Positions 3,406 to 58,802 of a stretch of DNA of 64,000 nt are shown in pieces. The stretch spans positions 1,790 to 65,789 of the forward strand of contig JACPOD010000026.1 in the NCBI GenBank assembly GCA_016185185.1, in the 5' to 3' direction. Under the pieces are notes generated by a model, which was not told the DNA's origin, searched no databases, and saw nothing but the letters and a program-made list of their open reading frames with translations. How positions within the stretch are numbered: the stretch's first letter is position 1; each line of letters opens with the position of its first letter. A program made the position numbers and the translations under genes. The stretch comes from Sphingobacteriales bacterium. GTDB lineage: Bacteria > Bacteroidota > Bacteroidia > Chitinophagales > Chitinophagaceae.

Positions 3406-4743
3406 ATGTTTAAAAAAATATTAATTGCCAACAGGGGAGAAATTGCATTACGGGTAATACGTACCTGTCGTGAAATGGGTATTAAAACCGTAGCGGTTTA
3501 TTCCACTGCTGATAAAGAAAGCCTCCATATAAAATTTGCAGATGAAGCAGTTTGTATTGGTAAACCTGCCGGTGCAGATTCTTATCTCAACATACCGCAC
3601 ATCATGGCAGCTGCTGAAATTACCAATGCCGATGCCATTCATCCAGGGTATGGTTTCCTGGCAGAAAATGCAAGGTTCTCACAAATATGTGCAGAGCATG
3701 GTATTAAATTTATAGGGCCCACGCCGGAGATGATTAATGCTATGGGTGATAAAATAACGGCTAAGGAAACCATGATAAAAGCAGGCGTTCCTGTTGTGCC
3801 GGGTGGTGGTGGTTTATTGCAGAGTGTGGAAGAAGCAAAAGTGTTAGCAAAAGAAATTGGCTATCCTGTAATATTAAAAGCAACGGCCGGTGGTGGTGGT
3901 AAAGGTATGCGCCTGGTATGGGAAGAAAGTGAAGTAGAAAAAGCATACAGTACCGCTAAAGCAGAAGCTGCTGCATCTTTTAAAAACGATGGTATCTATA
4001 TGGAAAAATTTGTGGAAGAACCACGCCATATTGAGATACAGGTTGCCGGTGACCGTTATGGAAAAGTTTGTCACTTAAGTGAAAGAGACTGTTCCATTCA
4101 GCGTCGTCACCAAAAACTGGTGGAAGAATCACCCTCTCCTTTTATGACTGCTGAGTTAAGGGAACGTATGGGCGAAGCAGCAATTAAAGCAGCCAGCGCC
4201 ATTAATTATGAAAGTGTGGGAACCATTGAGTTCCTTGTTGATAAGCACCGTAACTTCTATTTCATGGAAATGAATACGAGGATACAGGTGGAACATTGCG
4301 TTACAGAAGAAGTAACCAATTTCGATCTGATTAAAGAGCAAATAAAAATTGCGATGGGTGAACCCATCAGCGGTCAAAATTATATACCGGAAGGACATGC
4401 GATCGAATGCCGCATCAATGCAGAAGATCCTTACAATGATTTCCGTCCTTCACCGGGCAGAATTAATGTATTGCATCAGCCGGGTGGCCATGGTATCCGT
4501 ATTGACTCGCATGTGTATGCTGGGTATGTTATCCCTCCTTACTACGATTCAATGATCGCCAAGATCATTGCTGTGGCAAGAACCAGGGAAGAAGCCATTA
4601 ATACCATGAGCCGTGCACTGGCAGAATATGTGATAGAGGGTGTGAAGACAACCATTCCTTTTCACCAGCAACTGATGAAAGATGAAAATTTCCGCAAAGG
4701 AAACTTTACCACTAAGTTTTTGGAATCCTTCCAGTTAAAATAA
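3406..4743 (+). CDS. accC: acetyl-CoA carboxylase biotin carboxylase subunit
   Basis: 445 aa with [24 protein letters not shown] and [10 protein letters not shown] motifs. Confidence 0.96.
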
Positions 4744-4789
4744 TTTGTATTGACATGAGAAAAACAAGGCCTCTTCTTTTGAAGGGGCT

Positions 4790-5566
4790 TTATTTTTTTA
4801 TCCGCACCTGCATGGCATAGTGGTATGTATCCAGCGGTGTAAAAACAATCTTTTCTTTTGGAACAAAAGACAGGTAATGATATAATTTTTCTTTGGTAAA
4901 GCGTTGCGACCAGAAACGTTCTTTCGTAGCCGTGAAACTATCGTCCTTAGAAGTAATGACGGACATTCCTATTTTGGCATAGAAATCTTCCTGTTTTTTC
5001 CGGGTGTTGTCGTTATCAATATAACAGGCGCCGATCACCACTTCACCTCCATCATTTAGTAACTGGTATGCATTAAAAAAAATAGATTGAAATTTTTTAT
5101 TTTCCGTGAGGTCGAGTTTTATCCCGGAGTCTTTATAAGTTTCAAAAGGGAAATCATCCGGGTAAAAATTACCGGCGGTAAACCAGGTGGTGATGACAAG
5201 ATCGTATTTTCTTTTCCATTCATTTAGGTTGATGGCATCAAAAAAATGAACAGTTACTTTATCCTGTATGTTTAGGGAACGGATCACTTCATTGGAAATA
5301 TCGATGCAGGGCATGGCATTATCCGTACCATCATACTGACCGATCATATCCCACATGTCTTTAACGCCGCTCAGGTGCCGGGCAATACGGGCATTGCCAA
5401 TACCAATATCTAATATGGAAAGGGGAGATTGTTTGGCAGCATAAATTTCTGTGATCACTTTTTTTAGTTCAATGAATTCTGCCCACTGTGCCTGTATCTG
5501 TTCTTCGGGGAGATGGCTGGTATCAAAAGATTTTTTTACCGTATTCTCGTTATCATACATTTCCAT
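4790..5566 (-). CDS. class I SAM-dependent methyltransferase
   Basis: ILDIGIGNARIA matches SAM-binding motif I. ORF 4790..5584 begins with TTG; the first ATG is at 5566. Confidence 0.55.
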   Translation of the reverse strand: MEMYDNENTVKKSFDTSHLPEEQIQAQWAEFIELKKVITEIYAAKQSPLSILDIGIGNARIARHLSGVKDMWDMIGQYDGTDNAMPCIDISNEVIRSLNIQDKVTVHFFDAINLNEWKRKYDLVITTWFTAGNFYPDDFPFETYKDSGIKLDLTENKKFQSIFFNAYQLLNDGGEVVIGACYIDNDNTRKKQEDFYAKIGMSVITSKDDSFTATKERFWSQRFTKEKLYHYLSFVPKEKIVFTPLDTYHYAMQVRIKK

Positions 5567-5660
5567 GCGGGAAATTTTTGGCAATAGTACAAATTTTCAA
5601 CTATACTGATTAATTGCTGAGGTATTGTTGATCGGGTGATTGGTAATTGTAAAATATTTT

Positions 5661-5984
5661 TTACACTAACAATCTCCATATTCTTGCAAAAACGATTATA
5701 ATTGCTAGTAGACTTAATGAAATAGCTATATAAAGATGCCTTTTTCTATCTGGCGACTTGATGCTAAACATTGCTAAAGTAAATGAAATAATCCCTAAAA
5801 AAATAACATAATATTGATATCCAAATTGAAATAGTTCTTTAATTCCAAAAAGTAATTGAGTTTTTCTATCAACTCTTATGTATTCTTTTGCTATTTGATA
5901 ATTAACAAGCAAGGAAATAGCTATAGAAACAACACTAATTATAATAGAAGCTATTATAAAATTATTTCTTCTTACTTGGTTCAT
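5661..5984 (-). CDS. small integral membrane protein, unknown function
   Basis: 107 aa with about 3 predicted TM helices. The gene is visibly more AT-rich than its neighbours. Confidence 0.4.
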   Translation of the reverse strand: MNQVRRNNFIIASIIISVVSIAISLLVNYQIAKEYIRVDRKTQLLFGIKELFQFGYQYYVIFLGIISFTLAMFSIKSPDRKRHLYIAISLSLLAIIIVFARIWRLLV

Positions 5985-6070
5985 TAAAAAAGAATGATGT
6001 GTTAGAAAAGTGTTGATTTTTGATTAAAGAGCCAAAAATGATAAGTGCCAATACTTGAGTATATTAAATC

Positions 6071-6961
6071 CTATCTAAACCTCTCACTCACCACCATCTC
6101 CTTACTCCCCGCAGTATAAACATAAAATCCTTCACCAGCTTTTACGCCTAATTTGCCAGCAGTAACCATGTTCACCAATAAAGGACAGGGGGCATATTTA
6201 GGATTTCCAAACCCATCGTGCAGTACTTTTAATATGGCCAGACAAACATCCAGTCCAATAAAATCAGCTAACTGTAATGGTCCCATCGGGTGGGCCATGC
6301 CGAGTTTCATTACTGTATCAATTTCTTCCACACCAGCAACGCCTTCGTACAAACTGTAGATGGCTTCGTTGATCATCGGCATCAAAATGCGGTTGGCAAT
6401 AAAGCCAGGATAATCATTTACCACACAGGGTACTTTTCCAAGGTTCTTACTTAGCTCTACTATTGTATCCGTCACTTCTTTTTTAGTAGCATAACCATTA
6501 ATGATCTCCACCAGTTTCATCACCGGTACAGGGTTCATAAAATGCATTCCTATAACCAGCTCTGGTCTTTTGGTAACAGCTGCAATTTTTGTAATGGAAA
6601 TAGAAGAGGTATTGGTGGAAAGTATGCAACCTGCCGGTGCTGCCTCATCCAGTTGTCTGAATATTTTTAATTTAAGTTCTGTATTTTCTGTTGCAGCTTC
6701 TACCACTAACTGCGCATTTTTTACACCGGCTGCTACATCTGTATTCACCGTAATATTGGCAAGCGCTGCATTCTTTTGTTCTTCGGTAATACTTCCTTTG
6801 GATAACTGGCGGTCAAGATTTTTGCTGATCGTTTGTATGGCTTTATCCAGTTGCGCTGCATTTACATCTATAAGTGTAACCGGGTAACCACTTTGTGCAA
6901 ATACATGTGCGATGCCATTACCCATTGTGCCGGCTCCAATAACTGAGACTGTCTGAACCAT
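6071..6961 (-). CDS. 3-hydroxybutyryl-CoA / 3-hydroxyacyl-CoA dehydrogenase
   Basis: VIGAGTMGNGIAHV NAD-binding motif and GFIANRILMPMINEA motif, 296 aa. Confidence 0.9.
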   Translation of the reverse strand: MVQTVSVIGAGTMGNGIAHVFAQSGYPVTLIDVNAAQLDKAIQTISKNLDRQLSKGSITEEQKNAALANITVNTDVAAGVKNAQLVVEAATENTELKLKIFRQLDEAAPAGCILSTNTSSISITKIAAVTKRPELVIGMHFMNPVPVMKLVEIINGYATKKEVTDTIVELSKNLGKVPCVVNDYPGFIANRILMPMINEAIYSLYEGVAGVEEIDTVMKLGMAHPMGPLQLADFIGLDVCLAILKVLHDGFGNPKYAPCPLLVNMVTAGKLGVKAGEGFYVYTAGSKEMVVSERFR

Positions 6962-7114
6962 GATTTACGGGATTTATCTGATTATGTTGAAATAGTTGTT
7001 TATGAAATACAAAAGTAGGTTTATGCTTTTACTGCAAAAACAAACTTGCAATCAAAATATTTTCTATATTTCAGCTCTGATTAAATGAGCTTTTACCTCT
7101 AAACCCCGGCGCCA

Positions 7115-7558
7115 ATGCGCAGCGTACAGGCACAAATTGAAATAAAAACATCCCCATTGCGGATCATCCAGGCATTTTTAGATGCAGAAGACCTGCGTCG
7201 CTGGTGGGGGGTAGCCCGTTCGCTGGTACAACAAAAACCCGGCGGAATGTGGGTGCTTGCCTGGGAAGTTACTTCCAGCGGTATGAAATATGTTACCTCG
7301 GGTATTATTGAAACAGTACATGCTGACGGTTATTTAAAGATCACACACCTGGTTTACCTGCATCCGCAAAAACATATATTGGGCCCCATGGAAATGGAAA
7401 TAAATGTGCAGGCTATTGATGCTAATACCAGTTTATTAAGAGTAGAACAATCGGGCTATTTATTTGGCGGCGATTGGGATTGGTATTATGAAGCGGCGGC
7501 ACAGGGATTTCCGCATTCATTAAACTTATTAAAAACGTATTTGGAGAAGGGTTCTTAG
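7115..7558 (+). CDS. SRPBCC (AHSA1/START-like) family protein
   Basis: 147 aa. The pattern EDLRRWWG...W resembles Aha1-domain proteins. The call is by recollection only. Confidence 0.5.
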   Translation: MRSVQAQIEIKTSPLRIIQAFLDAEDLRRWWGVARSLVQQKPGGMWVLAWEVTSSGMKYVTSGIIETVHADGYLKITHLVYLHPQKHILGPMEMEINVQAIDANTSLLRVEQSGYLFGGDWDWYYEAAAQGFPHSLNLLKTYLEKGS

Positions 7559-7567
7559 TTGGTGTAT

Positions 7568-8206
7568 TTACTTCTTCTTAAAATCTCCCCGCTTCCATGC
7601 TTTTATAAACTCACTCCAGGCGGCAGGGTTTAATAAATTAATAGGAGGTTGCTGACCTGCATAATAAAGTTTTTGAGCCTGCTGGCGTAACTGCCTGTTA
7701 ACGGCTTCTCTTCCATCTGCCGGCAATACTGATGCCAGTGCACGAAGGGTAGCAGCATCATTATTTTTTCTTGCAATCGCTATATCATCATCGGGAACTG
7801 GCGTATTTACAAAATCCCTTTCAAACTGCTCTCTTGTGGGTCGTTGCTTTATAATAGTGGCGGGTAAATAAACAGTATCTGCCACCATTAACTGAATGAG
7901 GCTGTACTGATTGCCCTGTATATTTTTAGCTATAGATACCGTAACCGGCTTGTAACTCACATGGGTAAACTCCACCACATCACCTTTAAGTACAACGATT
8001 GAAAATACCCCCTGGTTGTTGGTGATGGTTCCCCTGTTTTGTCCTTTTATCATGATGGTGGCGCCGGGTATTGCTTTCAGGCTATCACTGGTCATAACTA
8101 CCCCATAAAGCTGAACCACAGAGTCCTGCATGGTTTCAAATTGTGCGAGTACTGATTTGGGTACAAAAAAAAGCAGCAATAAAAGGTATCGTAGAAATTT
8201 GTTCAT
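7568..8206 (-). CDS. carboxypeptidase-regulatory-like domain protein, exported
   Basis: Signal peptide MNKFLRYLLLLLFFVPKSVLAQ. LYGVVMTSDSLKAIPGATIMIKGQNRGTITNNQGVFSI matches the CarboxypepD_reg pattern. The start is taken at ATG 8206. Confidence 0.55.
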   Translation of the reverse strand: MNKFLRYLLLLLFFVPKSVLAQFETMQDSVVQLYGVVMTSDSLKAIPGATIMIKGQNRGTITNNQGVFSIVVLKGDVVEFTHVSYKPVTVSIAKNIQGNQYSLIQLMVADTVYLPATIIKQRPTREQFERDFVNTPVPDDDIAIARKNNDAATLRALASVLPADGREAVNRQLRQQAQKLYYAGQQPPINLLNPAAWSEFIKAWKRGDFKKK

Positions 8207-8304: not shown

Positions 8305-9402
8305 ATGACTGAGCAAAAAATACTGGAAGCGCTGAGCAATGTACAGGAGCCCGACCTTGGCAAAGACCTTGTTACGCTAAACATGGTAAAGGATATTGTA
8401 ATTGATGGTAACAATGTTTCTTTTACCGTTGTGTTAACAACACCGGCTTGCCCCTTAAAAGATATGATCCGTAATGCCTGTATCAACGCCGTAAAATTGT
8501 TAGTGAAAAAAGAAGCTGATGTTACGGTAAATTTTACTGCTAATACCAGCAGCAACCGTAAAGATGCTGCTACTATTTTGCCTAAAGTAAAAAATATTAT
8601 TGCGGTGGTGAGTGGTAAAGGTGGTGTAGGTAAATCAACTGTAAGTGCAAACCTTGCATTAGCATTAGCGCAGGGTGGCGCAAAAGTTGGTTTGATGGAC
8701 GCTGATATTTACGGACCAAGTGTTCCGATTATGTTTGGCATCCGTGGCCAAAGACCGGTGATGATGGAGATTGAAGGAAAAGGGATGATTGTGCCGATTG
8801 AAAAGTTTGGAATAAAACTGATGAGTATCGGTTCATTGGTTGATGATAAGAACGCAGTAGTATGGCGTGGTCCGATGGCAAGCAGTGCCATCCGCCAGTT
8901 CGTTACGGAAGTATTGTGGGAAGAACTGGATTATTTAATTATTGATATGCCACCGGGTACTGGTGATATTCATTTAACATTAGTGCAAACAGTTCCCGTT
9001 ACAGGGGCAATCATTGTTACTACTCCGCAGGATGTTGCTTTGGCTGATGCAAAGAGAGCAGTTGCTATGTTTGGACAGGCACAAATAAAAGTTCCAATCA
9101 TTGGTTTAGTGGAGAACATGAGTTATTTTATTCCGGCAGAGTTACCCGATAATAAATATTACATCTTTGGTAAAGATGGGGGCAGGCGTTTGGCAGAAGA
9201 ATATGATATTGCCTTCCTGGGGCAAATTCCATTGGTACAAAGCATAAGGGAGGGTGGTGATAGTGGATTGCCCATAATGATGAGTGAAGATAAAATTACC
9301 CGTAAAGCATTTGAAGATTTTGCCGGATTAGCTGCACGGAGTATTGCCATGCGGAATGCACAATACCCATCAACAAAGCCGTTGGAAGTTTTTAGTTCTT
9401 AG
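8305..9402 (+). CDS. apbC: Mrp/NBP35-family Fe-S cluster carrier ATPase
   Basis: N-terminal DUF59-like region followed by the deviant Walker A GKGGVGKST. Its stop codon lies inside the first heptamer units of the array at 9393. Confidence 0.92.
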   Translation: MTEQKILEALSNVQEPDLGKDLVTLNMVKDIVIDGNNVSFTVVLTTPACPLKDMIRNACINAVKLLVKKEADVTVNFTANTSSNRKDAATILPKVKNIIAVVSGKGGVGKSTVSANLALALAQGGAKVGLMDADIYGPSVPIMFGIRGQRPVMMEIEGKGMIVPIEKFGIKLMSIGSLVDDKNAVVWRGPMASSAIRQFVTEVLWEELDYLIIDMPPGTGDIHLTLVQTVPVTGAIIVTTPQDVALADAKRAVAMFGQAQIKVPIIGLVENMSYFIPAELPDNKYYIFGKDGGRRLAEEYDIAFLGQIPLVQSIREGGDSGLPIMMSEDKITRKAFEDFAGLAARSIAMRNAQYPSTKPLEVFSS

Positions 9403-9455
9403 TTTTAAATTCTTAGTTCTTAGTTCTTAGTTCTTAGTTCTGGGTTCTTGGTTCT
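9393..9455 (+). repeat. heptad-phased array, 9 units of TAGTTCT-type words (left arm)
   Basis: Sequence reads tagttct tagtttt aaattct tagttct tagttct tagttct tagttct gggttct tggttct. Confidence 0.9.
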
Positions 9456-9887
9456 GTTTTTTTGTTGCTTATCTGTCTTTAAACTTTGCACCTTTAAATT
9501 CCGCTTGTTTAAATAGTTTATTAAACCTATCAGCATCTTTTGTATTTCTTCTGCAATTGAGTAGAGGCTGTTTAGTTTTTCTTCCGGAATATAATGCCGG
9601 TCAAATATTCTGTACAGCTGTGATTGCGATTCGCAAACAGAACCATGAGCTATTTCAAGAAACTGAATGAATTCTTTATTCCCCCCTCTGCCAAAACCTT
9701 CAGCAATATTGTCCATAACTGAACCACTGGAATTATTAATTTGATCTCTTAATTTAAAATCTGTTTTAAGGCTTGTTTCTGTACAAATAACAAATATTTT
9801 CTTACAAAAAAATCTTGCTTTTTGCCAAACTTCAACGTCTTCAAATTTTTTAAAAGTAGCCAAATGAAAACGTTTAATTATACTCAA
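9420..9887 (-). CDS. four helix bundle protein (23S rRNA intervening-sequence protein family)
   Basis: FEDVEVWQKARFF...NIAEGFGRGGNKEFIQFLEIAHGSVCESQSQL matches the TIGR02436/PF05635 pattern. It has a TTG start, and its C-terminal tail is encoded by the left repeat arm. Confidence 0.8.
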   Translation of the reverse strand: MSIIKRFHLATFKKFEDVEVWQKARFFCKKIFVICTETSLKTDFKLRDQINNSSGSVMDNIAEGFGRGGNKEFIQFLEIAHGSVCESQSQLYRIFDRHYIPEEKLNSLYSIAEEIQKMLIGLINYLNKRNLKVQSLKTDKQQKNRTKNPELRTKN

Positions 9888-9893
9888 ACAATA

Positions 9894-9935
9894 AAACTTA
9901 GAACTTAAAACCCAGAACTAAGAACTAAAAACTCA
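9894..9935 (-). repeat. heptad-phased array, 6 units of AGAACTA-type words (right arm, inverted relative to 9393-9455)
   Basis: Sequence reads aaactta gaactta aaaccca gaactaa gaactaa aaactca, the reverse-complement word set of the left arm. Confidence 0.9.
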
Positions 9936-9941
9936 AAACAT

Positions 9942-11924
9942 TCAATAATAGTACTTCCATCCATAAGCCTGGTAAATCTTTTTGGGTGAATAGATATTAC
10001 CTTCTTTGATGGTTAGATAAATGTTACGGATGTCTTTAATATTTTTCTTTGGATCGCCATCAATTAAAATAAGATTAGCGATTTTACCTGCTTCAATGGT
10101 TCCATACTTATCCAGCATGTTATATTGTTTTGCCGGAAAATAAGTTGCCATTCTTAATACATCGTAATTAGGTATTCCTATTTCACTGTAAATTTCTAAT
10201 TCATGCTGAAGGATGCCACCATCGGTGCCTGAAAGAATGGTGATGCCATTATCATACAAAGCCTTTAATAATTTCTTCATCACTTCGTAAGAATGTGCAT
10301 AGGATTTTGCATAGGATTCATCATCAATAAATCCACCCGTCATCGCATTTCTTTTATCATTTGCAGCCATGTATTTTGCAATGGGTACAAACGCTTTGGC
10401 AATTTTACCCGGCATATCGGTAAACATGTTCTCAAAAATGTTGATGGTTGGGTCAACGGAAATATTCTTATCGTTCATCTTCTGAATAAAACTTTTTACA
10501 ACATCACTATTAACATCAATAGTATTTCCTTTTTTGCCAACCAGTTTAAAACGGGTCATATTTCTTGTATCCACTGTATCTCCAAAAAAGTTTAGCATCA
10601 GCATATTCAAATGTGTTACTTCATTGTAACCGGCATCAATTGCCTGCGAAGCCGTCATAAAAGCCGGTATATGTCCGCAAACCCGCATGCCCAAACTATG
10701 TGCTTTATCTGCCAATGGTTTTACCCATTCAGGATTAATAGAACTGTAGAGTTTTATTTGCTGGCATCCTTTGTCGTGATATTTCTGCACCCATTGCAAA
10801 CCTTCATCCAGTGAATTTATTAATGCTCCGGTGGGTGCTGCAAATTCACCTGCTTTATCAATAAAACCGGAAATAACATTTATTTCCGGCCCAAGTATGC
10901 TGTCTTCTTCAATTCGCTTTTTAAGGTTCCATAATTCATCACCATTGCCCATATCTCTTAAGTTGGTAACACCCTGTGCAATCATTTGCGGACCAGCTTC
11001 CATAAAAAAGTGACCATGCATTTCCCATAAGCCAGGCATTAAAAATTTATTGGTGCCATCAACTATTTTATATCCTGCAGGTATTTTGATAAAAGAAGAG
11101 TTTCCCACTTTCTCGATGAGATTGTTTTTTATTAATACCGTTCCATTGATGAAAGTGCTTCCTTCGGCAGCATTAAATACCGTGACATTTTTTATAGCAA
11201 TCCCATTAGAATATTTTTCAGTGGCTGCTGCTGATAAATCAGTATAGAATTTTTTCTCAAACACTTTTTGAACTGACAGTAATTCATCAATGTTTTTTTC
11301 AAATCCTTTTTTGATAACCGACATCCAGTCGCTTAAACTGCCAAAGAAATTGCTGTTAACATCATACCATGTGTAAAATGGAGGTCCGCCCAACCCGGAA
11401 AAGCCGATTAACTGGATAGAAAGTTTACTGTTGTTATCATCAGTAACCGTTACTTCTTTTACTACTTTGAATTCAAGATTTCCGGAAGGGAGAATGCTGA
11501 TTTTTTTGGTGGGCGACTGTTTAAGCAGTTTTAATATTAACTCATTTTCAGCCGGTGTTCCGTTTATGTTTGAATACACTTCTCCTTTATAGGGAACCGT
11601 TTCATTTTCAAATTTATTTTTCCAGGAAGCTTTGCTTTTTTTTACTTCAAATCTTTCATCCACTTTAGTTTTATAATAATCTACACCAGTAATATGCTGC
11701 GTAATAATATTCCCTTTCGCATTGGTTGTGATGTGCGAGTTGATAGATGGGCCACGGCCACGGTCATTATACTCGTAGTGATAATAGAAATCATTACTGC
11801 CGTTTTTCCACGTAAGTTGCTTGCCCACAGGTTTGCCGAACCTTACTGCATTATAATAAGTGGTATCCTGTGCGGGGCAAAAATTAACAATGACCAGTGT
11901 AATAAACGAAAGAAGCAGTTTCAT
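9942..11924 (-). CDS. amidohydrolase family protein, exported
   Basis: Signal peptide MKLLLSFITLVIVNFCPAQ. The C-terminal half has metal-dependent hydrolase patterns (MPGLWEMHGHF, CGHIP, SGTDGG). Confidence 0.75.
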   Translation of the reverse strand: MKLLLSFITLVIVNFCPAQDTTYYNAVRFGKPVGKQLTWKNGSNDFYYHYEYNDRGRGPSINSHITTNAKGNIITQHITGVDYYKTKVDERFEVKKSKASWKNKFENETVPYKGEVYSNINGTPAENELILKLLKQSPTKKISILPSGNLEFKVVKEVTVTDDNNSKLSIQLIGFSGLGGPPFYTWYDVNSNFFGSLSDWMSVIKKGFEKNIDELLSVQKVFEKKFYTDLSAAATEKYSNGIAIKNVTVFNAAEGSTFINGTVLIKNNLIEKVGNSSFIKIPAGYKIVDGTNKFLMPGLWEMHGHFFMEAGPQMIAQGVTNLRDMGNGDELWNLKKRIEEDSILGPEINVISGFIDKAGEFAAPTGALINSLDEGLQWVQKYHDKGCQQIKLYSSINPEWVKPLADKAHSLGMRVCGHIPAFMTASQAIDAGYNEVTHLNMLMLNFFGDTVDTRNMTRFKLVGKKGNTIDVNSDVVKSFIQKMNDKNISVDPTINIFENMFTDMPGKIAKAFVPIAKYMAANDKRNAMTGGFIDDESYAKSYAHSYEVMKKLLKALYDNGITILSGTDGGILQHELEIYSEIGIPNYDVLRMATYFPAKQYNMLDKYGTIEAGKIANLILIDGDPKKNIKDIRNIYLTIKEGNIYSPKKIYQAYGWKYYY

Positions 11925-12030
11925 ATTAGTTGGTTTATGCACAAAAGGTAGGAAGTTTTTCAGAATCTGCTTTTATTTCCTTTCATACTTTTTCTGCTTC
12001 CATCTCTGGGCTATTAATTAACTTCGCCGC

Positions 12031-24236: not shown

Positions 24237-24263
24237 AACCCCCAAACCCCCTGAAGGGGGCTT
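24237..24263 (+). repeat. 27-bp repeat with internal GC hairpin (left copy)
   Basis: aacccccaaaccccctgaagggggctt starts immediately after the acyltransferase stop codon. Confidence 0.95.
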
Positions 24264-24340
24264 TTGAGTTTTATCAGGTATTTGAATTATCGATAAACCT
24301 TGAAATAGAAATAAATCCACAATAAAACTTAAACTTTAGC

Positions 24341-24853
24341 ATGAAAAGAATATTGACACTTCCAACTTGGCAGGTTTTTATTTTGTTTATTATTCCCGCA
24401 ATTTTCCCATCATCTTATTTGGGGTTAATATTGACATTGGTCTGGGCGTCATTCATCGGGGTTTGTGTATATACAGTTGCAAACAGTTTACATAAAAAAC
24501 TTCCCGAATATCATGAACTTAAAATTAAACGGTTTAACTTTTATCTTTTATTTGCGCTTGTTTATTTCATAATAGTAGTTATTGTGTTTGAAGGAGGTTA
24601 TGAAATTAACCAGGACAATTATAAAGATTATGGTTGGGCAATAGCTGTAATTATTCCCCTTCATCTGTTTATGATGTATTGTGTTTTTTATTTGATATGG
24701 TTTATAGCGAAAGCAATAGCGACTGTTGAAAATAAAAGAGTAGTTTTTTTTGAAACGTATGCGGCTAATTTTTTCTTATTATGGTTTTTCCCGATAGGTG
24801 TGTGGTTTGTGCATTCAAAAATTCTAAAAATCTTTTCTGAGACGACTCAATAA
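24341..24853 (+). CDS. integral membrane protein, unknown function
   Basis: 170 aa, 4-5 TM helices, AT-rich. It is bracketed by the perfect 27-bp inverted repeats. Confidence 0.45.
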   Translation: MKRILTLPTWQVFILFIIPAIFPSSYLGLILTLVWASFIGVCVYTVANSLHKKLPEYHELKIKRFNFYLLFALVYFIIVVIVFEGGYEINQDNYKDYGWAIAVIIPLHLFMMYCVFYLIWFIAKAIATVENKRVVFFETYAANFFLLWFFPIGVWFVHSKILKIFSETTQ

Positions 24854-24918
24854 AAAAACTCAGCGGCATTTCACTAAGTTTTTATTTTATACAGTTTAAC
24901 AGAATTACAAAAGTTGAT

Positions 24919-24945
24919 AAGCCCCCTTCAGGGGGTTTGGGGGTT
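24919..24945 (-). repeat. 27-bp repeat (right copy, exact reverse complement of 24237-24263)
   Basis: aagcccccttcagggggtttgggggtt. It also encodes the last codons (NPQTP) and the stop of the convergent thioesterase. Confidence 0.95.
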
Positions 24946-41127: not shown

Positions 41128-41925
41128 ATGTATTCCAAAGGTCAGTTAGCTGCTAAATATTTTTCCTACTATCTTAAAGCTTCTAATGGAAAAGGCCATG
41201 GAACACATTCTCCCTATGTGTACGATTTTATTGAACAGGTACTCAATGATGACCGTGATTTTTACGCCTATAGTGAAATTGAAAACCTGCGCAAAACATT
41301 ATTAAAAGAGGAACGTACGATTGAGGTACAGGATTTTGGTGCCGGCTCAGCACTAATCAATACAAAACAAAGGAAAGTGGCAGATATAGCCCGGTATTCT
41401 TTGAAACCTAAAAAGTATGCACAATTATTATTCCGGATGGTGAATTATTACCAGCCCAAACATATCCTGGAAATAGGAACTTCTTTAGGTATCACTACCT
41501 GTTACCTCGCAAAGCCCGGCAACAATACCAAAGTAACTACAATGGAAGGGGCAGATTCAATTGCTGCAATCGCACAAGAAAATTTTAAAAAACTTGCATT
41601 AAAGAATATAGAATTAGTGCAAGGCAACTTTAATGAAACACTGTCATCTGTCATCCGTCAACTGTCAACTTTGGATTTCATTTTCATTGATGGCAACCAC
41701 CGCAAGGAACCAACCTTACGTTATTTCGAACAGCTGTTACCCTTAACACATAACGACACCATTTTAATATTTGATGATATTCACTGGAGTGAAGAAATGG
41801 AAGCTGCGTGGAAACAAATAAAAAAGCATGAGCAGGTAAGAACAACTATAGATTTATTTTTTATTGGAATTGTGTTGCTGAGAAAAGAGTTTAAGGAGAA
41901 ACAACATTTTACGATAAGATTTTAA
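41128..41925 (+). CDS. class I SAM-dependent O-methyltransferase-like protein
   Basis: ILEIGTSLGITT is motif I. FIFIDGNHRKEPT and IFDDIHWS follow. The start is at ATG 41128. Confidence 0.7.
   Translation: MYSKGQLAAKYFSYYLKASNGKGHGTHSPYVYDFIEQVLNDDRDFYAYSEIENLRKTLLKEERTIEVQDFGAGSALINTKQRKVADIARYSLKPKKYAQLLFRMVNYYQPKHILEIGTSLGITTCYLAKPGNNTKVTTMEGADSIAAIAQENFKKLALKNIELVQGNFNETLSSVIRQLSTLDFIFIDGNHRKEPTLRYFEQLLPLTHNDTILIFDDIHWSEEMEAAWKQIKKHEQVRTTIDLFFIGIVLLRKEFKEKQHFTIRF
41641..41668 (+). repeat. 4 x 7-bp array (CTGTCAT/CTGTCAA) inside the methyltransferase coding sequence
   Basis: Sequence reads ctgtcat ctgtcat ccgtcaa ctgtcaa, translated in-frame as LSSVIRQLS. Confidence 0.8.
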
Positions 41926-41951
41926 ACCCTAAATCCCTAAAGGGACTTTGC

Positions 41952-41959
41952 TACATTTG
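41952..41959 (+). promoter_or_regulatory. -7 box TAcaTTTG upstream of the rRNA methyltransferase gene
   Basis: Perfect TAnnTTTG 22 nt upstream of TTG 41981. This argues against the annotated ORF start at 41948. Confidence 0.45.
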
Positions 41960-41980
41960 TTGTCTAATTATCTTTATCAA

Positions 41981-43366
41981 TTGAATTCAACTTTACCAGA
42001 AAAATTATTAGCATCTCTTGAAGGAATAAAAGGTTTCGATAAAGAAGCGTTTGTTGCCGTGCATGAAAAAGCAGAAGTAATTACTTCAATCAGGTTAAAT
42101 CCTGTTAAACAGTCAATGGTCAATGGTCAATCGTCAATAAAAGATGGCATTCACTATTCACTATTCACTATTCACTCAAAAGTTCCCTGGAGCTCTAACG
42201 GTTACTATCTTCCCGAACGTCCATCTTTTACCTTAGACCAATTATTCCACGCCGGTACTTATTATGTGCAGGAAGCCAGCAGTATGTTTTTGGAGGAAGC
42301 GGTGCGGCAAACTGTTGATGTATCAAAACCAATAAAAGTACTGGACTTATGTGCAGCACCGGGTGGAAAATCAACGTTACTGCAAAGCATTATTTCGGCG
42401 GATAGTTTACTGGTGAGTAATGAAGTGATACAATCAAGAGCATCGGTGTTAAGAGAAAATATAATAAAGTGGGGAGCAGCTAATGTAGTGGTGACGAATA
42501 ATGATCCGAAAGATTTTCAGCAGTTGCAGGGATTTTTTGATGTGATTGTGGTAGATGCGCCCTGTAGTGGCAGTGGTTTATTCAGGCGGGATGAAGAAGC
42601 CATTGCTGAATGGAGTGAGAATAATGTACAGCTGTGCAGTCAGCGGCAGCAACGGATTTTAGCAGATGTATTACCGGCGTTGAAAGAAGAAGGTGTGTTG
42701 ATTTATTCTACCTGCTCTTATTCAAAAGATGAAGACGAAAAAATAATCGATTGGTTAATCAATCACTGTCAACTGTCAACCATCAACTGTCAACTCAAAG
42801 AAGAATGGAATATTGTTGAATCAAATGGCGGCTATCGTTTCTGGCCCGATAAAATTAAAGGTGAAGGGTTTTTTATTGCTTGTTTTAAAAAGAATGAAGG
42901 AGTGGAATTTTCTTATCCAAGGGTGAGAGCCTTTAATAAAGCCACTAAACAGGAAGCAGAAGTATTAAGCTGTTTTTTGGATAAACCACAGCAGTTTGAA
43001 TTTCTTCCGCTCACGGATCATTTATTTGCTGTGCCGGTTGAATTAGTTCAGGATATAATGCTGCTGAAAAGTTTATTACGCATCCGTTATGCAGGCATTG
43101 AAATGGGTGTAATCAATAAAAACGATTTGATACCGGAACATACACTGGCTCTTTCTGTTCATATCAATAAAACATTACCTGCTGTTCAGCTCAATAAAGA
43201 ACAGGCTTTACAATATTTACGCAAGCAGGATAATCTTCAACTGGAATTAAATGGTATGAAAGGATGGTGTTTGATGCAGTATGAAGGGATTAATCTTGGA
43301 TGGGCCAAGCTATTGCCTAACCGTATTAATAATTATTATCCTAAGGAGTGGAGGATATTAAAGTAG
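41981..43366 (+). CDS. RsmB/RsmF-family rRNA cytosine-C5 methyltransferase
   Basis: YYVQEASSM, DLCAAPGGKST, VDAPCSGSG and YSTCS motifs. The start is uncertain (TTG 41981 or TTG 41948). It contains in-frame repeat elements. Confidence 0.82.
   Translation: MNSTLPEKLLASLEGIKGFDKEAFVAVHEKAEVITSIRLNPVKQSMVNGQSSIKDGIHYSLFTIHSKVPWSSNGYYLPERPSFTLDQLFHAGTYYVQEASSMFLEEAVRQTVDVSKPIKVLDLCAAPGGKSTLLQSIISADSLLVSNEVIQSRASVLRENIIKWGAANVVVTNNDPKDFQQLQGFFDVIVVDAPCSGSGLFRRDEEAIAEWSENNVQLCSQRQQRILADVLPALKEEGVLIYSTCSYSKDEDEKIIDWLINHCQLSTINCQLKEEWNIVESNGGYRFWPDKIKGEGFFIACFKKNEGVEFSYPRVRAFNKATKQEAEVLSCFLDKPQQFEFLPLTDHLFAVPVELVQDIMLLKSLLRIRYAGIEMGVINKNDLIPEHTLALSVHINKTLPAVQLNKEQALQYLRKQDNLQLELNGMKGWCLMQYEGINLGWAKLLPNRINNYYPKEWRILK
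42112..42176 (+). repeat. composite element: 4 x GTCAATG + 9-bp spacer + 4 x ATTCACT, in-frame in the methyltransferase gene
   Basis: Sequence reads gtcaatg gtcaatg gtcaatc gtcaata aaagatggc attcact x4. It is homologous to 46088-46159 (reverse complement). Confidence 0.9.
42766..42793 (+). repeat. 4 x 7-bp array (CTGTCAA) in-frame in the methyltransferase gene
   Basis: Sequence reads ctgtcaa ctgtcaa ccatcaa ctgtcaa, translated as CQLSTINCQL. Confidence 0.85.
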
Positions 43367-45719: not shown

Positions 45720-45745
45720 ATGCAGTAGTTGTATCCCATTTTTAT
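45714..45745 (+). terminator. rho-independent terminator after the LysM/RlpA-like gene
   Basis: Stem aatgggat / atcccatt with an 11-nt loop, followed by ttttatt. Confidence 0.6.
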
Positions 45746-46659
45746 TGAAAACGATAGCCTCTTAAAAAATCTTCTACATTCATTTTCTTTTTTCCTTCCA
45801 GCTGAAGTTCGATTACATGTACATAACCATCGGCACAGGCGAATTTTAGAAATGTTTTGTTATCGGTTTCAAATTCACCGGTATTGCTTTTAGATGATGT
45901 GATTTCTTTTTTACTCCGGTATATCTTCAGCATCTTTCCCTGCCCGACTTCGTCATTCAGGCGGGCATCTAAATAAGTAAACGCTCCGGGAAAAGGAGAG
46001 AGGCCTCGGATGAGGTTATGTACTTCAGTTGTTGTTTTGGTAAAATCTATTTTGCAGGTGTCGGTGAAAATTTTGGGGGCATGTTTGAGTGAATGGTGAA
46101 TAGTGAATGGTGAATTGCCATCTTCTTTTTCCATTGACCATTGACCATTGACCATTGACAACTGGGGAACTTCATTAAGAGACCTATCCGCTAACCCTTC
46201 CACTGTTTTTACTAACAACGCTGCTCCAATTTCTTTCATTTTATCATGCACTTCACCGGCGGTTTCATTTTCATCTATGTTGATAGGAGCGGCGCCACGG
46301 TATTGTGGTAATAAACTACCATGTAAGTTAACTGTTCCCATTGGCGGCATATTCCAAACAACTTCGGGTAACATGCGGAAGGCAACCACAATTTGTAAAT
46401 CGGCATTGAGTGCTTTTAGTTGTTCCAGGAATTCAGCATTCTTTAATTTTTCCGGTTGCAGGATGTTTAAGTTATGTTCAACAGCATATTTCTTTACAGC
46501 ACTTTCATTGAGCTTCATTCCACGTCCGGCAGGTTTATCGGGTGCAGTGATTACACCCACAATATTACATCCAGCTTTTACCAATGCATCCAGAGAAGCT
46601 ACGGCAAAATCCGGTGTGCCCATAAAAACAATTCGCAGCGATTGAAAATCTTTCATCAT
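45742..46659 (-). CDS. fmt: methionyl-tRNA formyltransferase, atypical (internal gap plus repeat insertion)
   Basis: RIVFMGTPDFAV and NLHGSLLPQYRGAAPI motifs, with C-terminal domain LSPFPGAF...LQLEGKKKM. The segment expected after RGAAPI seems missing, and element 46088-46159 is inserted. Confidence 0.8.
   Translation of the reverse strand: MMKDFQSLRIVFMGTPDFAVASLDALVKAGCNIVGVITAPDKPAGRGMKLNESAVKKYAVEHNLNILQPEKLKNAEFLEQLKALNADLQIVVAFRMLPEVVWNMPPMGTVNLHGSLLPQYRGAAPINIDENETAGEVHDKMKEIGAALLVKTVEGLADRSLNEVPQLSMVNGQWSMEKEDGNSPFTIHHSLKHAPKIFTDTCKIDFTKTTTEVHNLIRGLSPFPGAFTYLDARLNDEVGQGKMLKIYRSKKEITSSKSNTGEFETDNKTFLKFACADGYVHVIELQLEGKKKMNVEDFLRGYRFQ
46088..46159 (-). repeat. composite element: 4 x GTCAATG + 16-nt spacer + 4 x ATTCAC(C/T) (as read on the minus strand), in-frame in fmt
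   Basis: The plus strand reads agtgaat ggtgaat agtgaat ggtgaat tgccatcttcttttt c cattgac x4. Confidence 0.9.
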
Positions 46660-46704
46660 CGCTGCGAAGGTAAGAGAAGCAATTATACTTCTCAATAGTT
46701 CGCA

Positions 46705-49551: not shown

Positions 49552-50808
49552 ATGTTTATACAGGTAAATGAAAACCAGCTGGCCGAACGTTTTATGCGGT
49601 ATGTAAAAGTGGATACACAAAGTGATCCGCTGAGTAATACGTATCCCACTACCGAAAAGCAAAAGGATCTTTCCCGCATCCTCGTGCAGGAATTACAGGG
49701 CATGGGTATAAGCGATGCACACCTGGATGAACATGGCTATGTGTATGCTACGATACCATCCAACAGCAGTAAAAAAAATATTCCGGTTATCTGTTATTGT
49801 GCCCATGTGGATACAGCGCCTGACTGCAGTGGCACGGATGTTAAACCCATCCTACATAAAAATTATGATGGTGCAGCTATTGTGTTGCCCGATGATAATT
49901 TACAGGTATTAACATTGGAAGCTTATCCTTATTTGAAAAATCATATAGGAGCTGATATCATTACTGCCAGTGGAAAAACATTACTCGGCAGTGATGATAA
50001 AGCCGGTGTGGCAGAGATCATGGAGTTTGCCTATTATGTAATGACGCATCCTGAAATTAATCATGGTGAAATAAAATTATTGTTTACACCGGATGAAGAA
50101 GTGGGCAAAGGGACAGCGAATGTGGATCTGAAAAAGTTAGGAGCACAATATGGTTATACATTGGATGGTGGTGAAGCCGGTGATCTGGAAGACGAAACCT
50201 TTAGTGCAGATGCAGCACATATTATTGTAAATGGTGTTATCTCACATCCCGGTTATGCCAAAGGGAAGATGGTGAATGCTTTGAAAATCGCCGGTGAAAT
50301 TTTAGCAGCGTTACCGAAGAATGAATTTAGTCCGGAGACTACGGAAAAACGGGAAGGTTTTGTGCACCCAACAAGAGTGGATGGTATAGCAGAAAAAGCA
50401 ACCATTGAATTTATAGTTCGTGATTTTGATACAGCGAGGTTAGCCCAACATCAAGCAAGACTAAAATCCATTGCAGAAAAAGTATTGAGTAATTATCCCA
50501 ACTGCAATATGGAGTTCCATGTACAGGAACAATACCGCAACATGAAAGAAATACTGGATCAAAACCCTCATGTAGTAACTAATGCTGAAGAAGCTATTAA
50601 ACGGGCAGGTTTATCGGTAAGAAAAGAAGCCATCCGTGGCGGTACCGATGGCAGCCGCTTAAGTTTTATGGGGTTGCCTTGCCCCAATCTTTTTGCAGGT
50701 GAACAAGCGATTCACTCCAAATTAGAATGGATAGGTGTAAAGGACATGGTTAAAGCTGTGGAAACACTTTTGCATCTTTCAATGATTTGGGAAGAGAAGA
50801 GTGAATAG
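49552..50808 (+). CDS. pepT: peptidase T (tripeptide aminopeptidase, M20B)
   Basis: RFMRYVKVDTQSD, CAHVDTAPD, LGSDDKAG and FTPDEEVG motifs. Its stop codon lies inside the repeat arm. Confidence 0.92.
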   Translation: MFIQVNENQLAERFMRYVKVDTQSDPLSNTYPTTEKQKDLSRILVQELQGMGISDAHLDEHGYVYATIPSNSSKKNIPVICYCAHVDTAPDCSGTDVKPILHKNYDGAAIVLPDDNLQVLTLEAYPYLKNHIGADIITASGKTLLGSDDKAGVAEIMEFAYYVMTHPEINHGEIKLLFTPDEEVGKGTANVDLKKLGAQYGYTLDGGEAGDLEDETFSADAAHIIVNGVISHPGYAKGKMVNALKIAGEILAALPKNEFSPETTEKREGFVHPTRVDGIAEKATIEFIVRDFDTARLAQHQARLKSIAEKVLSNYPNCNMEFHVQEQYRNMKEILDQNPHVVTNAEEAIKRAGLSVRKEAIRGGTDGSRLSFMGLPCPNLFAGEQAIHSKLEWIGVKDMVKAVETLLHLSMIWEEKSE

Positions 50809-50873
50809 TGAAAAATGAAAAATGAATAATCGGGTCTTTATATTTTTCACTTTGCTCTTTTCATTTTTCATTT
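50800..50873. repeat. paired inverted heptamer arrays (AGTGAAT/AATGAAA words) between convergent genes
   Basis: Left arm agtgaat agtgaaa aatgaaa aatgaat aat. Right arm atttttcactttgctcttttcatttttcattt. The stop codons of both flanking genes fall in or at the arms. Confidence 0.85.
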
Positions 50874-51219
50874 AAATCTCTTCTTTCCAAATGCGCATAT
50901 ACCAGTAAATGGGGAAGCCTATGCCACCGGTAAAAATAAATACCAGTACCCATATTACTCTTTCACCACCCTGCACCAGTTTATTATTGATCATATGTAC
51001 GATAAAATAAATAAGTGCTGCCAGTTTTAGTACAGCAGTAATAATGGCCACTATAACAAGGGGCCACATAGTATTCCATACGGTAAAAAAATCTGGCTCC
51101 GTATGATCCCAGTAAGCAAACTGCGGTATCATGGTCAGCACCATGATGATGATAACAAAGGCAGAAAGGATGGGCAGGAAACTAAATATCCCTGACAGTA
51201 TTTTTGAATTGCGGCTCAT
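50872..51219 (-). CDS. small membrane protein with PLD-nuclease-N-terminal-like (PLDc_N) motif
   Basis: 115 aa, 3 TM helices, C-terminal GGIGFPIYWYM. Confidence 0.5.
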   Translation of the reverse strand: MSRNSKILSGIFSFLPILSAFVIIIMVLTMIPQFAYWDHTEPDFFTVWNTMWPLVIVAIITAVLKLAALIYFIVHMINNKLVQGGERVIWVLVFIFTGGIGFPIYWYMRIWKEEI

Positions 51220-53292: not shown

Positions 53293-53524
53293 CACAGGGA
53301 TTCCTTACCAATTCAACATTCAAAATTCATCATTCAGCATTCAAAATAATCCACCCCGCAGGGGATTCCTCATTCATTCAAAATTCATCATTCAGCATTC
53401 AAAATAATCCACCCCGCAGGGGATTCCTCATTCATTCAAAATTCATCATTCAGCATTCAAAATAATCCACCCCGCAGGGGATTCCTCATTCATTCAAAAT
53501 TTATAATTCAAAATTTAAAATAAT
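53293..53524 (+). repeat. tandem array, 4 units of 58 bp (two central units identical)
   Basis: The unit is ccaccccgcaggggattcctcattcattcaaaattcatcattcagcattcaaaataat, with copies at 53351 and 53409 (identical) and diverged copies at 53293 and 53467. Each unit is a GC mini-hairpin plus ATTCANN heptamers. Confidence 0.92.
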
Positions 53525-57738: not shown

Positions 57739-58674
57739 TTATACAACTGCTTTCACCATCCGGTCTTTTCCCTGCATATCTTTCTTTACTTCTATACTGG
57801 TAAATCCTTTTGCTGTAAATAAAGCTATCATATCATTACCCAATGCTTCATTAATTTCCAAAAACATCATTCCAACCGGTTTTAAATGCGTTAAGGCAAA
57901 ATCAGCTATCTGTTTATAAAAGATCAATGCATCATCATCGGGTACAAAAAGTGCTAAGGATGGTTCAAAGTCTAAAACGCCTTTACGCATGGCTGCGGCT
58001 TCACTTCTTTTTACATAAGGTGGGTTACTTACAATAATATCAAACTGGCCTAATTCATTCCATTTAGTTCTGTCTAAAAAGTCAAGCAACTTGAAATCTA
58101 TCTCTGTTTCATTACTCATGGCATTTTGAACGGCTATACTTAATGCTTCACTGCAAACATCAATAGCCGTTACTTTAGCAGCAGGTAACTTCTTTTTCAA
58201 CGCAATGGGTATGCAGCCGCTGCCTGTTCCAATGTCAATTATTTTGAATTTTGAATTTTGAATGTTGAATAAATCGTTGGTAGTCGGCTGTTGTTCATTG
58301 GCCGGAGGATTATCAGGTTTTAATTTTTCATTTTTCATTTTCCACTTTTCACTTTCAATTATCCACTCCACCAGCTCTTCTGTTTCCGGTCTTGGTATCA
58401 GTACTTTTTCATTTACATAAAATTTCATTCCGGCAAACCAGGCTTCACCCAATACATATTGTACAGGCCGGTGGGCTAATAATTCTTTTGTGTATTTTTC
58501 TAACTGCCCCTGCTTTTGTGGAGATAAAGGAAATTCTTTGTTTACGATGCGGTCAATTCGTTTCCATTCTGTAATATGCTCCATCACCCAGTCGGCAATA
58601 TTATGCGCCTCTCTGTCATCATAAATCTCAAACAGCTGAAACAATAACTGCTGGTATGCCCGGTGAATGGTCAT
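57739..58674 (-). CDS. prmC: peptide chain release factor N5-glutamine methyltransferase, with in-frame repeat insertion
   Basis: LIPRPETEELVEW, DIGTGSGCIPIAL and SNPPY motifs. At 311 aa it is about 30 aa longer than I recall for PrmC, and the extra residues map to 58241-58358. Confidence 0.88.
   Translation of the reverse strand: MTIHRAYQQLLFQLFEIYDDREAHNIADWVMEHITEWKRIDRIVNKEFPLSPQKQGQLEKYTKELLAHRPVQYVLGEAWFAGMKFYVNEKVLIPRPETEELVEWIIESEKWKMKNEKLKPDNPPANEQQPTTNDLFNIQNSKFKIIDIGTGSGCIPIALKKKLPAAKVTAIDVCSEALSIAVQNAMSNETEIDFKLLDFLDRTKWNELGQFDIIVSNPPYVKRSEAAAMRKGVLDFEPSLALFVPDDDALIFYKQIADFALTHLKPVGMMFLEINEALGNDMIALFTAKGFTSIEVKKDMQGKDRMVKAVV
58241..58358 (-). repeat. composite element in-frame in prmC: 5 x GAAAA(G/A)T-type + 55-bp spacer + 4 x ATTCAAA (as read on the coding strand)
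   Basis: The plus strand reads attttga attttga attttga atgttga (58241-58268), then tttttca tttttca ttttcca cttttca ctttcaa (58324-58358). Confidence 0.85.
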
Positions 58675-58686
58675 GGGGCAAAAATA

Positions 58687-58802
58687 CTGGTTTCTGGTTG
58701 GGGTTGGTTACTGGTTCCTTGTTCTTATAACCAGCAACCAGTAACTTGTAACCAGCAACCAGTAACTTGTAACCAGCAACCAGTAACTTGTAACCAGCAA
58801 CC
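58687..58802. repeat. heptamer arrays in inverted orientation; right arm is a 21-bp tandem repeat (3.5 copies)
   Basis: Left arm ctggttt ctggttg gggttgg ttactgg ttccttg ttcttat. Right arm (aaccagc aaccagt aacttgt) x3 + aaccagcaacc, at 58729-58802. Confidence 0.9.

Follow-up and report, generated by a model that had tools for sequence, protein, structure and literature searches.

The window analysed here is a 64,000-nucleotide stretch of contig JACPOD010000026.1, which belongs to a Sphingobacteriales metagenome-assembled genome. Between two convergent genes, an apbC/Mrp Fe–S carrier gene on the plus strand (8305–9402; PF10609, E = 3.4e-96, and PF01883) and an amidohydrolase gene on the minus strand (9942–11942; PF01979, E = 2.3e-18), it contains a 554-nt cassette (9388–9941, minus strand) composed of one open reading frame (ORF) of the PF05635/TIGR02436 four-helix-bundle family and two inverted arrays of tandem heptamers. 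The amidohydrolase gene lies directly upstream of the cassette and is co-directional with it, a point that adds to the convergent setting recognized in the initial annotation. All parts of the cassette are on the minus strand and are named here in the sense of the gene. A 5′ arm of GTTYNWR heptamers (9893–9939), defined by Tandem Repeats Finder (TRF), by inverted repeats I3–I7 and by the sense-RNA fold, begins after a 2-nt spacer from the amidohydrolase stop codon; its units read GTTTTGA, GTTTTTA, GTTCTTA, GTTCTGG, GTTTTAA and GTTCTAA. It is followed by a 29-nt leader (9864–9892), assigned from the sequence, that ends at a TTG start codon, and by the ORF itself (9420–9863; 147 residues), delimited by profile hidden Markov models (HMMs) and homologues. 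The 3′ arm (9387–9462), located by TRF and by the inverted-repeat arms, consists of about 10 units of the type (AGAACYA)n and contains the present stop codon of the ORF (9420–9422). The bounds of the cassette are taken from the empty site in 19 relatives, with which homology on the apbC side stops after ...CTGGAA (9387) and on the amidohydrolase side restarts at TCAATAA (9942). Its GC content is 30.5%, compared with 38.3% for the window.

On the plus strand, the end of apbC (9388–9402), comprising its final five codons and its stop, lies in the 3′ arm. The amidohydrolase has the same C-terminus as in relatives (...GWKYYY*), and apbC ends in ...PLEVFSS* in the window versus ...PLEFVNQ* in relatives. 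The array thus supplies the last residues of apbC and its stop codon, the latter (9400–9402, inside the left array) as initially proposed, and comparison of the two endings indicates that the 3′ end of apbC has been remodelled by the insertion.

The encoded protein matches both family profile HMMs above their cutoffs (PF05635, E = 6.9e-34 and 116.7 bits against a cutoff of 33.8; TIGR02436, E = 4e-32 and 110.7 bits against 24), in agreement with its earlier placement, and is 99% identical to a 147-residue ‘four helix bundle protein’ at NCBI. The gene had been described as having 155 codons, which is the length of the mechanical ORF from a TTG at 9887. All homologues begin with Met-Ala-Thr and align to a second TTG at 9863; the start is therefore likely to be at 9863, giving the product of 147 residues that is also annotated at NCBI. 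The C-terminal 28 residues depart from the reading frame of the family as a result of a frameshift after ...INYLNK, and a three-frame translation compared with family C-termini places the ancestral-frame stop codon (...AEFKGAKFKDR*) at 9469–9471. The C-terminal tail previously credited to the repeat does run into the array, but only through this frameshift.

An AlphaFold2 model of the protein (pLDDT 85.5) consists of four long helices and a 4-residue helical turn within residues 11–128, followed by a disordered tail (residues 126–147). In Foldseek searches the model superimposes best on 2gsc and 2rld (target-normalized TM 0.79–0.94, rmsd 1.4–1.9), and next best on Avd, the accessory protein of diversity-generating retroelements (DGRs; 4dwl, target-normalized TM 0.80–0.84, rmsd 2.1–2.5). 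The suggested relation to Avd is borne out as a match of fold, but with a weak E-value. The 2gsc and 2rld entries each contain five chains, and Xanthomonas S23p has been described as a toroidal homopentamer (PMC4990558); by analogy, the S23p/Avd-like protein of the cassette is probably pentameric. An alignment of 32 sequences of ∼60% identity contains 26 invariant columns, and the protein is clearly constrained. The PF05635 family is large, with 20,515 representatives of 50%-identity clusters in a profile search. A phmmer search of six-frame ORFs found no second copy in the window, and a search for viral relatives found none in IMG/VR and one weak phage match elsewhere, so that there is no sign of phages carrying these modules.

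TRF assigns the left array to 9387–9455 (period 7, 9.9 copies, 83% matches) and the right array to 9893–9939 (period 7, 6.7 copies, 77% matches). These are the inverted arrays noted initially, and they comprise ∼10 AGTTCTT-type units on the left and ∼7 reverse-complement units on the right. Both exceed the minimum of at least three tandem 7-nt copies that defines a heptanucleotide tandem repeat. A two-unit probe (TAGTTCTTAGTTCT, with up to two mismatches allowed) matches nine times, every time within the two arrays; shuffled sequences give a mean of 0.45 matches, and none of 100 reaches nine. The arms are 45–53 nt long, 75–82% complementary and separated by 423–469 nt. In the predicted fold of the sense RNA, both arrays contribute to a closing stem of ∼38 bp (26 + 6 + 6 pairs) from which the ORF is looped out, the long stem anticipated in the initial annotation. 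The fold has a free energy of −133.5 kcal/mol and z = −4.45, with 0 of 100 shuffles folding equally well; the antisense strand gives z = −2.87. Rfam searches of the whole window (gathering threshold) and of 9250–10050 (permissive scan) returned no known RNA family and no rRNA. A promoter and terminator scan gave nothing above shuffles and no sigma-70-like promoter upstream of the ORF on the same strand, using a model in which Bacteroidota promoters are not represented.

A metagenome scan with the C-terminal half of the amidohydrolase as query returned 40 loci, of which 19 keep the convergent amidohydrolase/apbC pair (57–83% identity for the amidohydrolase and 77–83% for apbC). No PF05635 gene is present at the junction in any of these 19 relatives, which indicates that the cassette is a discrete insertion and supplies the empty sites at apbC that this idea had called for. 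The stop codons of the two genes overlap in seven relatives (spacer of −7), and a spacer of 23–25 nt separates them in four. Five have an unrelated palindrome of 85–97 nt, and three (L100, L103 and L112) have gene-less inverted arrays of the heptamer GATGNNN. Approximately 8 nt of ancestral junction sequence has been replaced by the cassette. As a separate observation, the 85–97-nt palindromic element (AACACGGATGACACTGATCAAA...TCAAATCCGTGTCATCTGTGTGC) occupies this junction in L081, L083, L085, L086 and L107, and the convergent amidohydrolase/apbC junction is a hot spot for hairpin elements.

Inverted arrays around PF05635 genes in other genomes

The inverted-array design is a family-wide property in Bacteroidota. 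A scan of a genome collection with the homologue alignment yielded 80 loci from many Bacteroidota families, and 74 modules were set against 483 control ORFs taken from these loci. The flanking inverted-repeat score exceeds the 95th percentile of the controls in 77% of the modules versus 4% of the controls (Mann–Whitney p ∼2e-32), and the period-7 score does so on each side in 59% of modules versus 3–5% of controls. A chance origin of the arrays is rejected by this comparison together with the probe shuffles. With the window counted in, 50 of 75 modules have three or more heptamers in tandem on each side; the mode is four copies upstream and three downstream. The logo of the 5′ arm unit is G-T-T-T/c-N-W-R, with the GTT core present in ∼85% of units and positions 5–7 variable, and the 3′ arm is its reverse complement. 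Sharing of 7-mers between arms is 0.38 within a locus versus 0.058 between loci (0 of 2000 permutations). Among 107 period-7 arrays in 834 kb, 76 (71%) adjoin a PF05635 gene, where array density is 26-fold higher. More distant paralogues (∼31% identity) also have inverted arrays, with a period of 8 or 9 and other words, and the periods found among Bacteroidota modules are 7, 8, 9 and ∼10–11 nt.

The modules follow the direction of host transcription. The upstream neighbour is co-directional with the ORF in 62 of 65 loci and both neighbours are in 57; five loci have the arrangement of the window, with a co-directional upstream and a convergent downstream gene, and in no case do both neighbours run antisense to the ORF. 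The arrays fill the spacers: a median of 3 nt separates the upstream stop codon from the 5′ arm, and the 3′ arm extends from the ORF's own stop codon to within 10 nt (median) of the following ATG. The arms have a median length of 27 nt. The suf operon hosts 37 of the 57 modules with recognizable context, at sufA/sufB, sufB/sufC or sufC/sufD, and others lie at purK/purE and cysD/cysN. One Flavobacterium suf operon (L073) contains three modules (4070–7654). The same Flavobacterium suf spacer may be empty (1 nt at sufC/sufD in L030; 10 nt at sufA/sufB in L044), occupied by a hairpin that has the same type of word and no gene (78 nt at sufC/sufD in L063; 125 nt at sufB/sufC in L043) or occupied by a full module. 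The number of heptamer units varies among close relatives (L043 and L066 versus L072). Two further features of this set may be mentioned. The polarity is reversed in L047 (4600–5500), where AAC-type units lie upstream and GTT-type units downstream, with extra GTT arrays further upstream that suggest nested or rearranged arrays. Also, in a family rich in suf sites, the window copy adjoins apbC, another Fe–S carrier gene, which could reflect a safe-haven effect or a functional link.

The association extends to Cyanobacteria, sampled here as 24 plasmid-borne PF05635 loci taken in two batches. Inverted arrays are present at 17 of the 24, and together with the Bacteroidota set they agree with the earlier expectation that other copies of the family would be flanked in this way. 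Two loci (L122 and L140) have direct arrays, and at the others a single flank bears an array. The words are unlike those of Bacteroidota: 5′ arms are purine-rich (TCAGGAG, TAGGGAG, GGGAAAA, TAGGGTG, GCAGAGG, ACAGGTG) and 3′ arms pyrimidine-rich. The modules are found at cas6/cas4 and cas10/cmr3, between ribonucleotide reductase (RNR) subunit genes and beside integrases. Array-bearing cassettes among cas genes occur in Pseudanabaena (L122), Anabaena sp. 90 (L139) and Picosynechococcus (L134). A large clustering study scored ‘23S rRNA IVP’ as CRISPR-array-linked (PMC10910872); this score may be due to repeat-bearing cassettes between cas genes, a likely confounder.

Likeness to rRNA intervening sequences and alternative explanations

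The same design is found inside a 23S rRNA gene. A tblastn match without an annotated coding sequence on the Azospirillum lipoferum chromid AZO_p2 (L129) is a 23S rRNA gene (Rfam LSU, 2131 bits) that is broken at helix 45, between ...CCGAAGCTGCGGAT and GTGGTAGCGGAGCGTTCC..., by an intervening sequence (IVS). This IVS holds a PF05635 ORF (E = 1.6e-33). Its 5′ arm consists of GACRGAN-type units (TCAGAG, GACGGAT, GACAGAG, GACGGAG, GACAGAA), and the reverse complement lies at the other end, which substantiates the proposed link to 23S rRNA IVS. In Coxiella, a helix-45 IVS has been described (Warrier et al. 2016, PMC4990558): this selfish element is 428 nt long, carries an S23p ORF and has a terminal stem of 28 bp. 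It contains 3–4 tandem GACAGAT heptamers, the count being strain-dependent, and RNase III cleavage sites have been mapped within the stem; its origin and mobility were left unexplained (PMC4990558).

The window cassette has every structural feature of an ORF-bearing IVS except residence in rRNA. With those of Coxiella, Leptospira and Azospirillum it shares the PF05635/S23p ORF family, a size of ∼430–560 nt, terminal inverted repeats of at least ∼28 bp that loop out the ORF, and arms built of tandem heptamers. Like rRNA IVS, such cassettes are sporadic, present or absent among relatives, as seen at the amidohydrolase/apbC junctions (0 of 19) and in the three states of the suf spacers. Unlike rRNA IVS, the window cassette lies between protein-coding genes and not in rRNA helix 9, 25 or 45, its heptamer word is GTTYNWR, and its relatives are embedded in mRNA operons (suf, purEK, cysDN, cas, RNR). 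Cleavage by RNase III has been demonstrated for the rRNA version alone, and the stem of the window is longer than the Coxiella substrate.

We consider it probable that the cassette is a selfish element of the same kind as the ORF-bearing 23S rRNA IVS, living between protein-coding genes, and that it was inserted where the convergent genes amidohydrolase and apbC formerly had overlapping stop codons. The ORF, which has no room for a promoter of its own, would then be expressed through transcription that continues from the host gene upstream of it, here likely the amidohydrolase. In the read-through transcript the arrays would zip into a stem of ∼27–40 bp with the ORF looped out, and this stem would rejoin the flanking host sequences, bringing the upstream stop and the downstream start within ∼13 nt. 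A stem of such length would suit RNase III, by comparison with the rRNA version, and probably serves as an RNase III structure or as insulation: the cassette would probably be cut from the host RNA, or structurally insulated within it, so that its insertion is tolerated. After gain or loss of units by slippage, the arms could re-pair in another register, and pairing would survive because both arms are tandem repeats. The protein may act in maintenance or mobility.

Several observations weigh against this interpretation. Gene-less hairpins, and modules in which a hairpin precedes the ORF, could mean that the arrays are primary and the gene a later arrival. The window contains ∼14 further heptamer arrays away from the PF05635 gene, some of them inside ORFs. 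The flanking arrays are direct, not inverted, at cyanobacterial loci L122 (1050–1700; 15 × AAAGCTA upstream and 10 × AAAGCCA downstream) and L140 (long purine-rich arrays on both sides) and at the sole Gemmatimonadota locus, L136. The arms are imperfect, with the 75–82% complementarity given above for the window and many transversions across loci. Transition mismatches that could form G·U pairs number 82 in the sense RNA versus 119 in the antisense, a comparison confounded by the many registers available to repeat arms; there is no wobble-pair excess on the sense strand and hence no support from it for selection on the sense RNA. At the window locus, the TTG start and the frameshifted tail suggest that this copy may be decaying, no target-site duplication is seen at 9387/9388 or 9941/9942 in comparison with the empty sites, and no transposase, recombinase or reverse transcriptase gene is among those flanking the cassette.

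The first two of these observations bear on an alternative in which the hairpins came first. Inverted-array hairpins would be independent intergenic elements, whether slippage-grown terminators or stabilizers or small mobile repeats, and the PF05635 gene would be a passenger that lands in them or recombines into them. We regard this as unlikely. It accommodates the gene-less hairpins at the orthologous suf spacers of L063 and L043, the gene-less GATGNNN arrays at the amidohydrolase/apbC junction, the loci at which a complete GTT/AAC hairpin stands before the ORF and a second AAC array after it (L063, L065, L073 and L044), and the arrays of the window that have no PF05635 gene, including a hairpin at 50795–50884. 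It does not sit well with the 26-fold density of arrays beside PF05635 genes, which claim 71% of the period-7 arrays in the 834 kb, or with an association that recurs across three phyla with unrelated words and also inside rRNA helix 45. Moreover, the array ends of the 125-nt element of L043 match those of the full module in the same genome, as fits an internal deletion; outside the arrays the alignment between the two is suggestive at most. The initial annotation had regarded the other arrays of the window as gene-less relatives of the cassette, which is not established: their words are different, several are located within ORFs, and in two pairs the members are 3.9–4.9 kb distant from each other. 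Gene-less hairpins of the same word type as the full modules do occur at orthologous sites in other genomes.

A second alternative assigns the heptamers to the protein, as a phased RNA or DNA binding platform for the pentamer itself, with pairing of the arms secondary. The conserved GTT followed by a 4-nt spacer, in ∼4–5 copies, resembles the binding of TRAP to spaced triplets, and such a platform would provide autoregulation or ribonucleoprotein assembly. The constancy of the GTT core relative to positions 5–7 and the clustering of copy number at 3–5 are consistent with this idea, as are the five chains of 2gsc and 2rld and the S23p homopentamer. Avd, the closest fold after 2gsc and 2rld, is found in an RNA–protein complex with reverse transcriptase (8ub7). 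We nevertheless consider a binding platform decidedly unlikely, given that the period ranges from 7 to ∼10–11 nt among Bacteroidota modules and that the words are wholly different between phyla, complementarity of the arms being the constant feature. In addition, the word lies on opposite strands in the two arms, so that a single-strand RNA binder would meet two different motifs. An invertible DNA switch, in which recombination at the arrays would invert the gene with respect to the host operon, is very improbable: a short segment between inverted repeats is the anatomy of an inverton and antisense placement is found in a few cases (3 of 65 in Bacteroidota, and cyanobacterial L123 and L126), but 62 of 65 are co-directional with the upstream gene, no invertase or recombinase gene flanks the window cassette, and the design recurs inside an rRNA helix, where inversion is meaningless.

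A more far-reaching proposal can be framed, which we judge unlikely. PF05635 cassettes would constitute an ancient, pan-bacterial class of RNA-structured selfish elements that colonize conserved, well-expressed transcripts, among them 23S rRNA helices and the suf, purEK, cysDN, cas and RNR operons. The Avd-like pentamer would help them to spread, for instance through recruitment of a reverse transcriptase in trans, the part that Avd plays in DGRs. Such a class would be a major source of the heptamer arrays resembling short tandemly repeated repetitive (STRR) sequences in Cyanobacteria and Bacteroidota, which have long lacked an explanation, and the gene-less hairpins would be its non-autonomous derivatives.

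Comparison with other known systems

The protein shares the four-helix bundle of DGR Avd (PF22296, bAvd-like; 4dwl, 8ub7), and cyanobacterial PF05635 proteins give sub-threshold matches to PF22296. Homology between PF05635 and Avd has been asserted (PMC10053308). The proteins differ in that sequence identity is ∼10%, and the sequence profile misses 4dwl at E ≤ 0.01. A DGR at this locus was considered and rejected: no reverse transcriptase is found among the genes flanking the cassette, to which the scan was confined, and no template/variable repeat pair lies beside the gene. The repeats at the locus are heptamer arrays only.

Heptamer arrays are known from cyanobacteria, Beggiatoaceae and some Bacteroidetes (TAACTGA repeats; PMC4679880). 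The cassette arrays resemble STRR-type heptanucleotide repeats in consisting of tandem 7-nt units that are mostly intergenic, close to start or stop codons, variable in copy number and found in the same phyla. STRR-type repeats have been described as arrays in direct orientation, with a fixed word and without a gene attached, whereas the cassette arrays form inverted pairs around one gene family and their word depends on the locus. The classical STRR words CCCCAGT, TTGGTCA and CAACAGT were not seen in the arrays studied here. Foldback transposons and miniature inverted-repeat transposable elements (MITEs) have terminal inverted repeats built of short tandem repeats, and include short gene-less derivatives beside longer copies that carry ORFs. 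The modules described here differ from them in lacking a transposase, in the absence of a target-site duplication at the window junctions, and in their strong orientation bias relative to host transcription.

For over 30 years, IVS have been seen as a peculiarity of rRNA genes, carrying an ORF without an assigned role. Should cassettes of this design routinely occupy operon spacers in two or more large phyla, those in rRNA would be the tip of a much larger class, and some of the heptanucleotide arrays known from Cyanobacteria and Bacteroidota would acquire a concrete origin or function. The suf operons of cultivable Flavobacterium would offer a setting in which to study an Avd-like pentamer outside DGRs. 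There is also a consequence for annotation, since repeats of this kind rewrite host gene ends, as in the apbC stop codon supplied here, and create spurious tails. The ORF-bearing rRNA IVS, the heptamers of the Coxiella IVS, the PF05635 proteins with their likeness to Avd, and heptamer arrays as such were already known. In the full-text literature, whose coverage leaves out most subscription journals, we found no description of non-rRNA PF05635 genes as generally bracketed by inverted tandem arrays and embedded in conserved operons, nor of a design common to non-rRNA PF05635 modules and IVS, and a prior description is possible.

Other repeats in the window

An inverted repeat of 76 nt (42112–42187 and 46077–46152) is 79% complementary, with arms 3.9 kb apart. 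Each arm consists of two heptamer sub-arrays, GTCAATG ×4 plus ATTCACT ×4 in one and AGTGAAT ×4 plus CATTGAC ×4 in the other. The arm at 42112–42187 lies inside an ORF on the plus strand (41948–43366) and reads ...KQSMVNGQSSIKDGIHYSLFTIHS..., and that at 46077–46152 lies inside an ORF on the minus strand (45742–46695). The 3.9-kb segment between them could be invertible or formerly mobile. Direct arrays of the heptamer ACTGTCA are present within two coding regions (41640–41670 and 42765–42787), showing that the heptamer arrays of this genome are not confined to spacers.

A 58-bp tandem repeat (53311–53524; 3.6 copies, 96% matches) has units that each contain ATTCAAA-type heptamers and the palindrome CCCCGCAGGGG, and is complementary to an ATTTTGA array 4.7–4.9 kb away (58238–58274). 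The gene-less heptamer hairpin at 50795–50884 (AGTGAAT/AATGAAA ... TTTTCAT, with a 36-nt loop) is positioned between convergent ORFs at 49552–50808 (plus strand) and 50872–51219 (minus strand), and might act as a terminator in both directions or be a relative of the cassette that lacks the gene. A 36-nt inverted repeat that is not composed of heptamers (24237–24272 and 24910–24945; 89% complementary) has the palindrome CCCCCTGAAGGGGG in each arm and encloses a 170-residue membrane-like ORF (24341–24853). Finally, a 21-bp tandem repeat, CTTGTAACCAGCAACCAGTAA, is present in 3.8 copies with 98% matches at 58724–58802.

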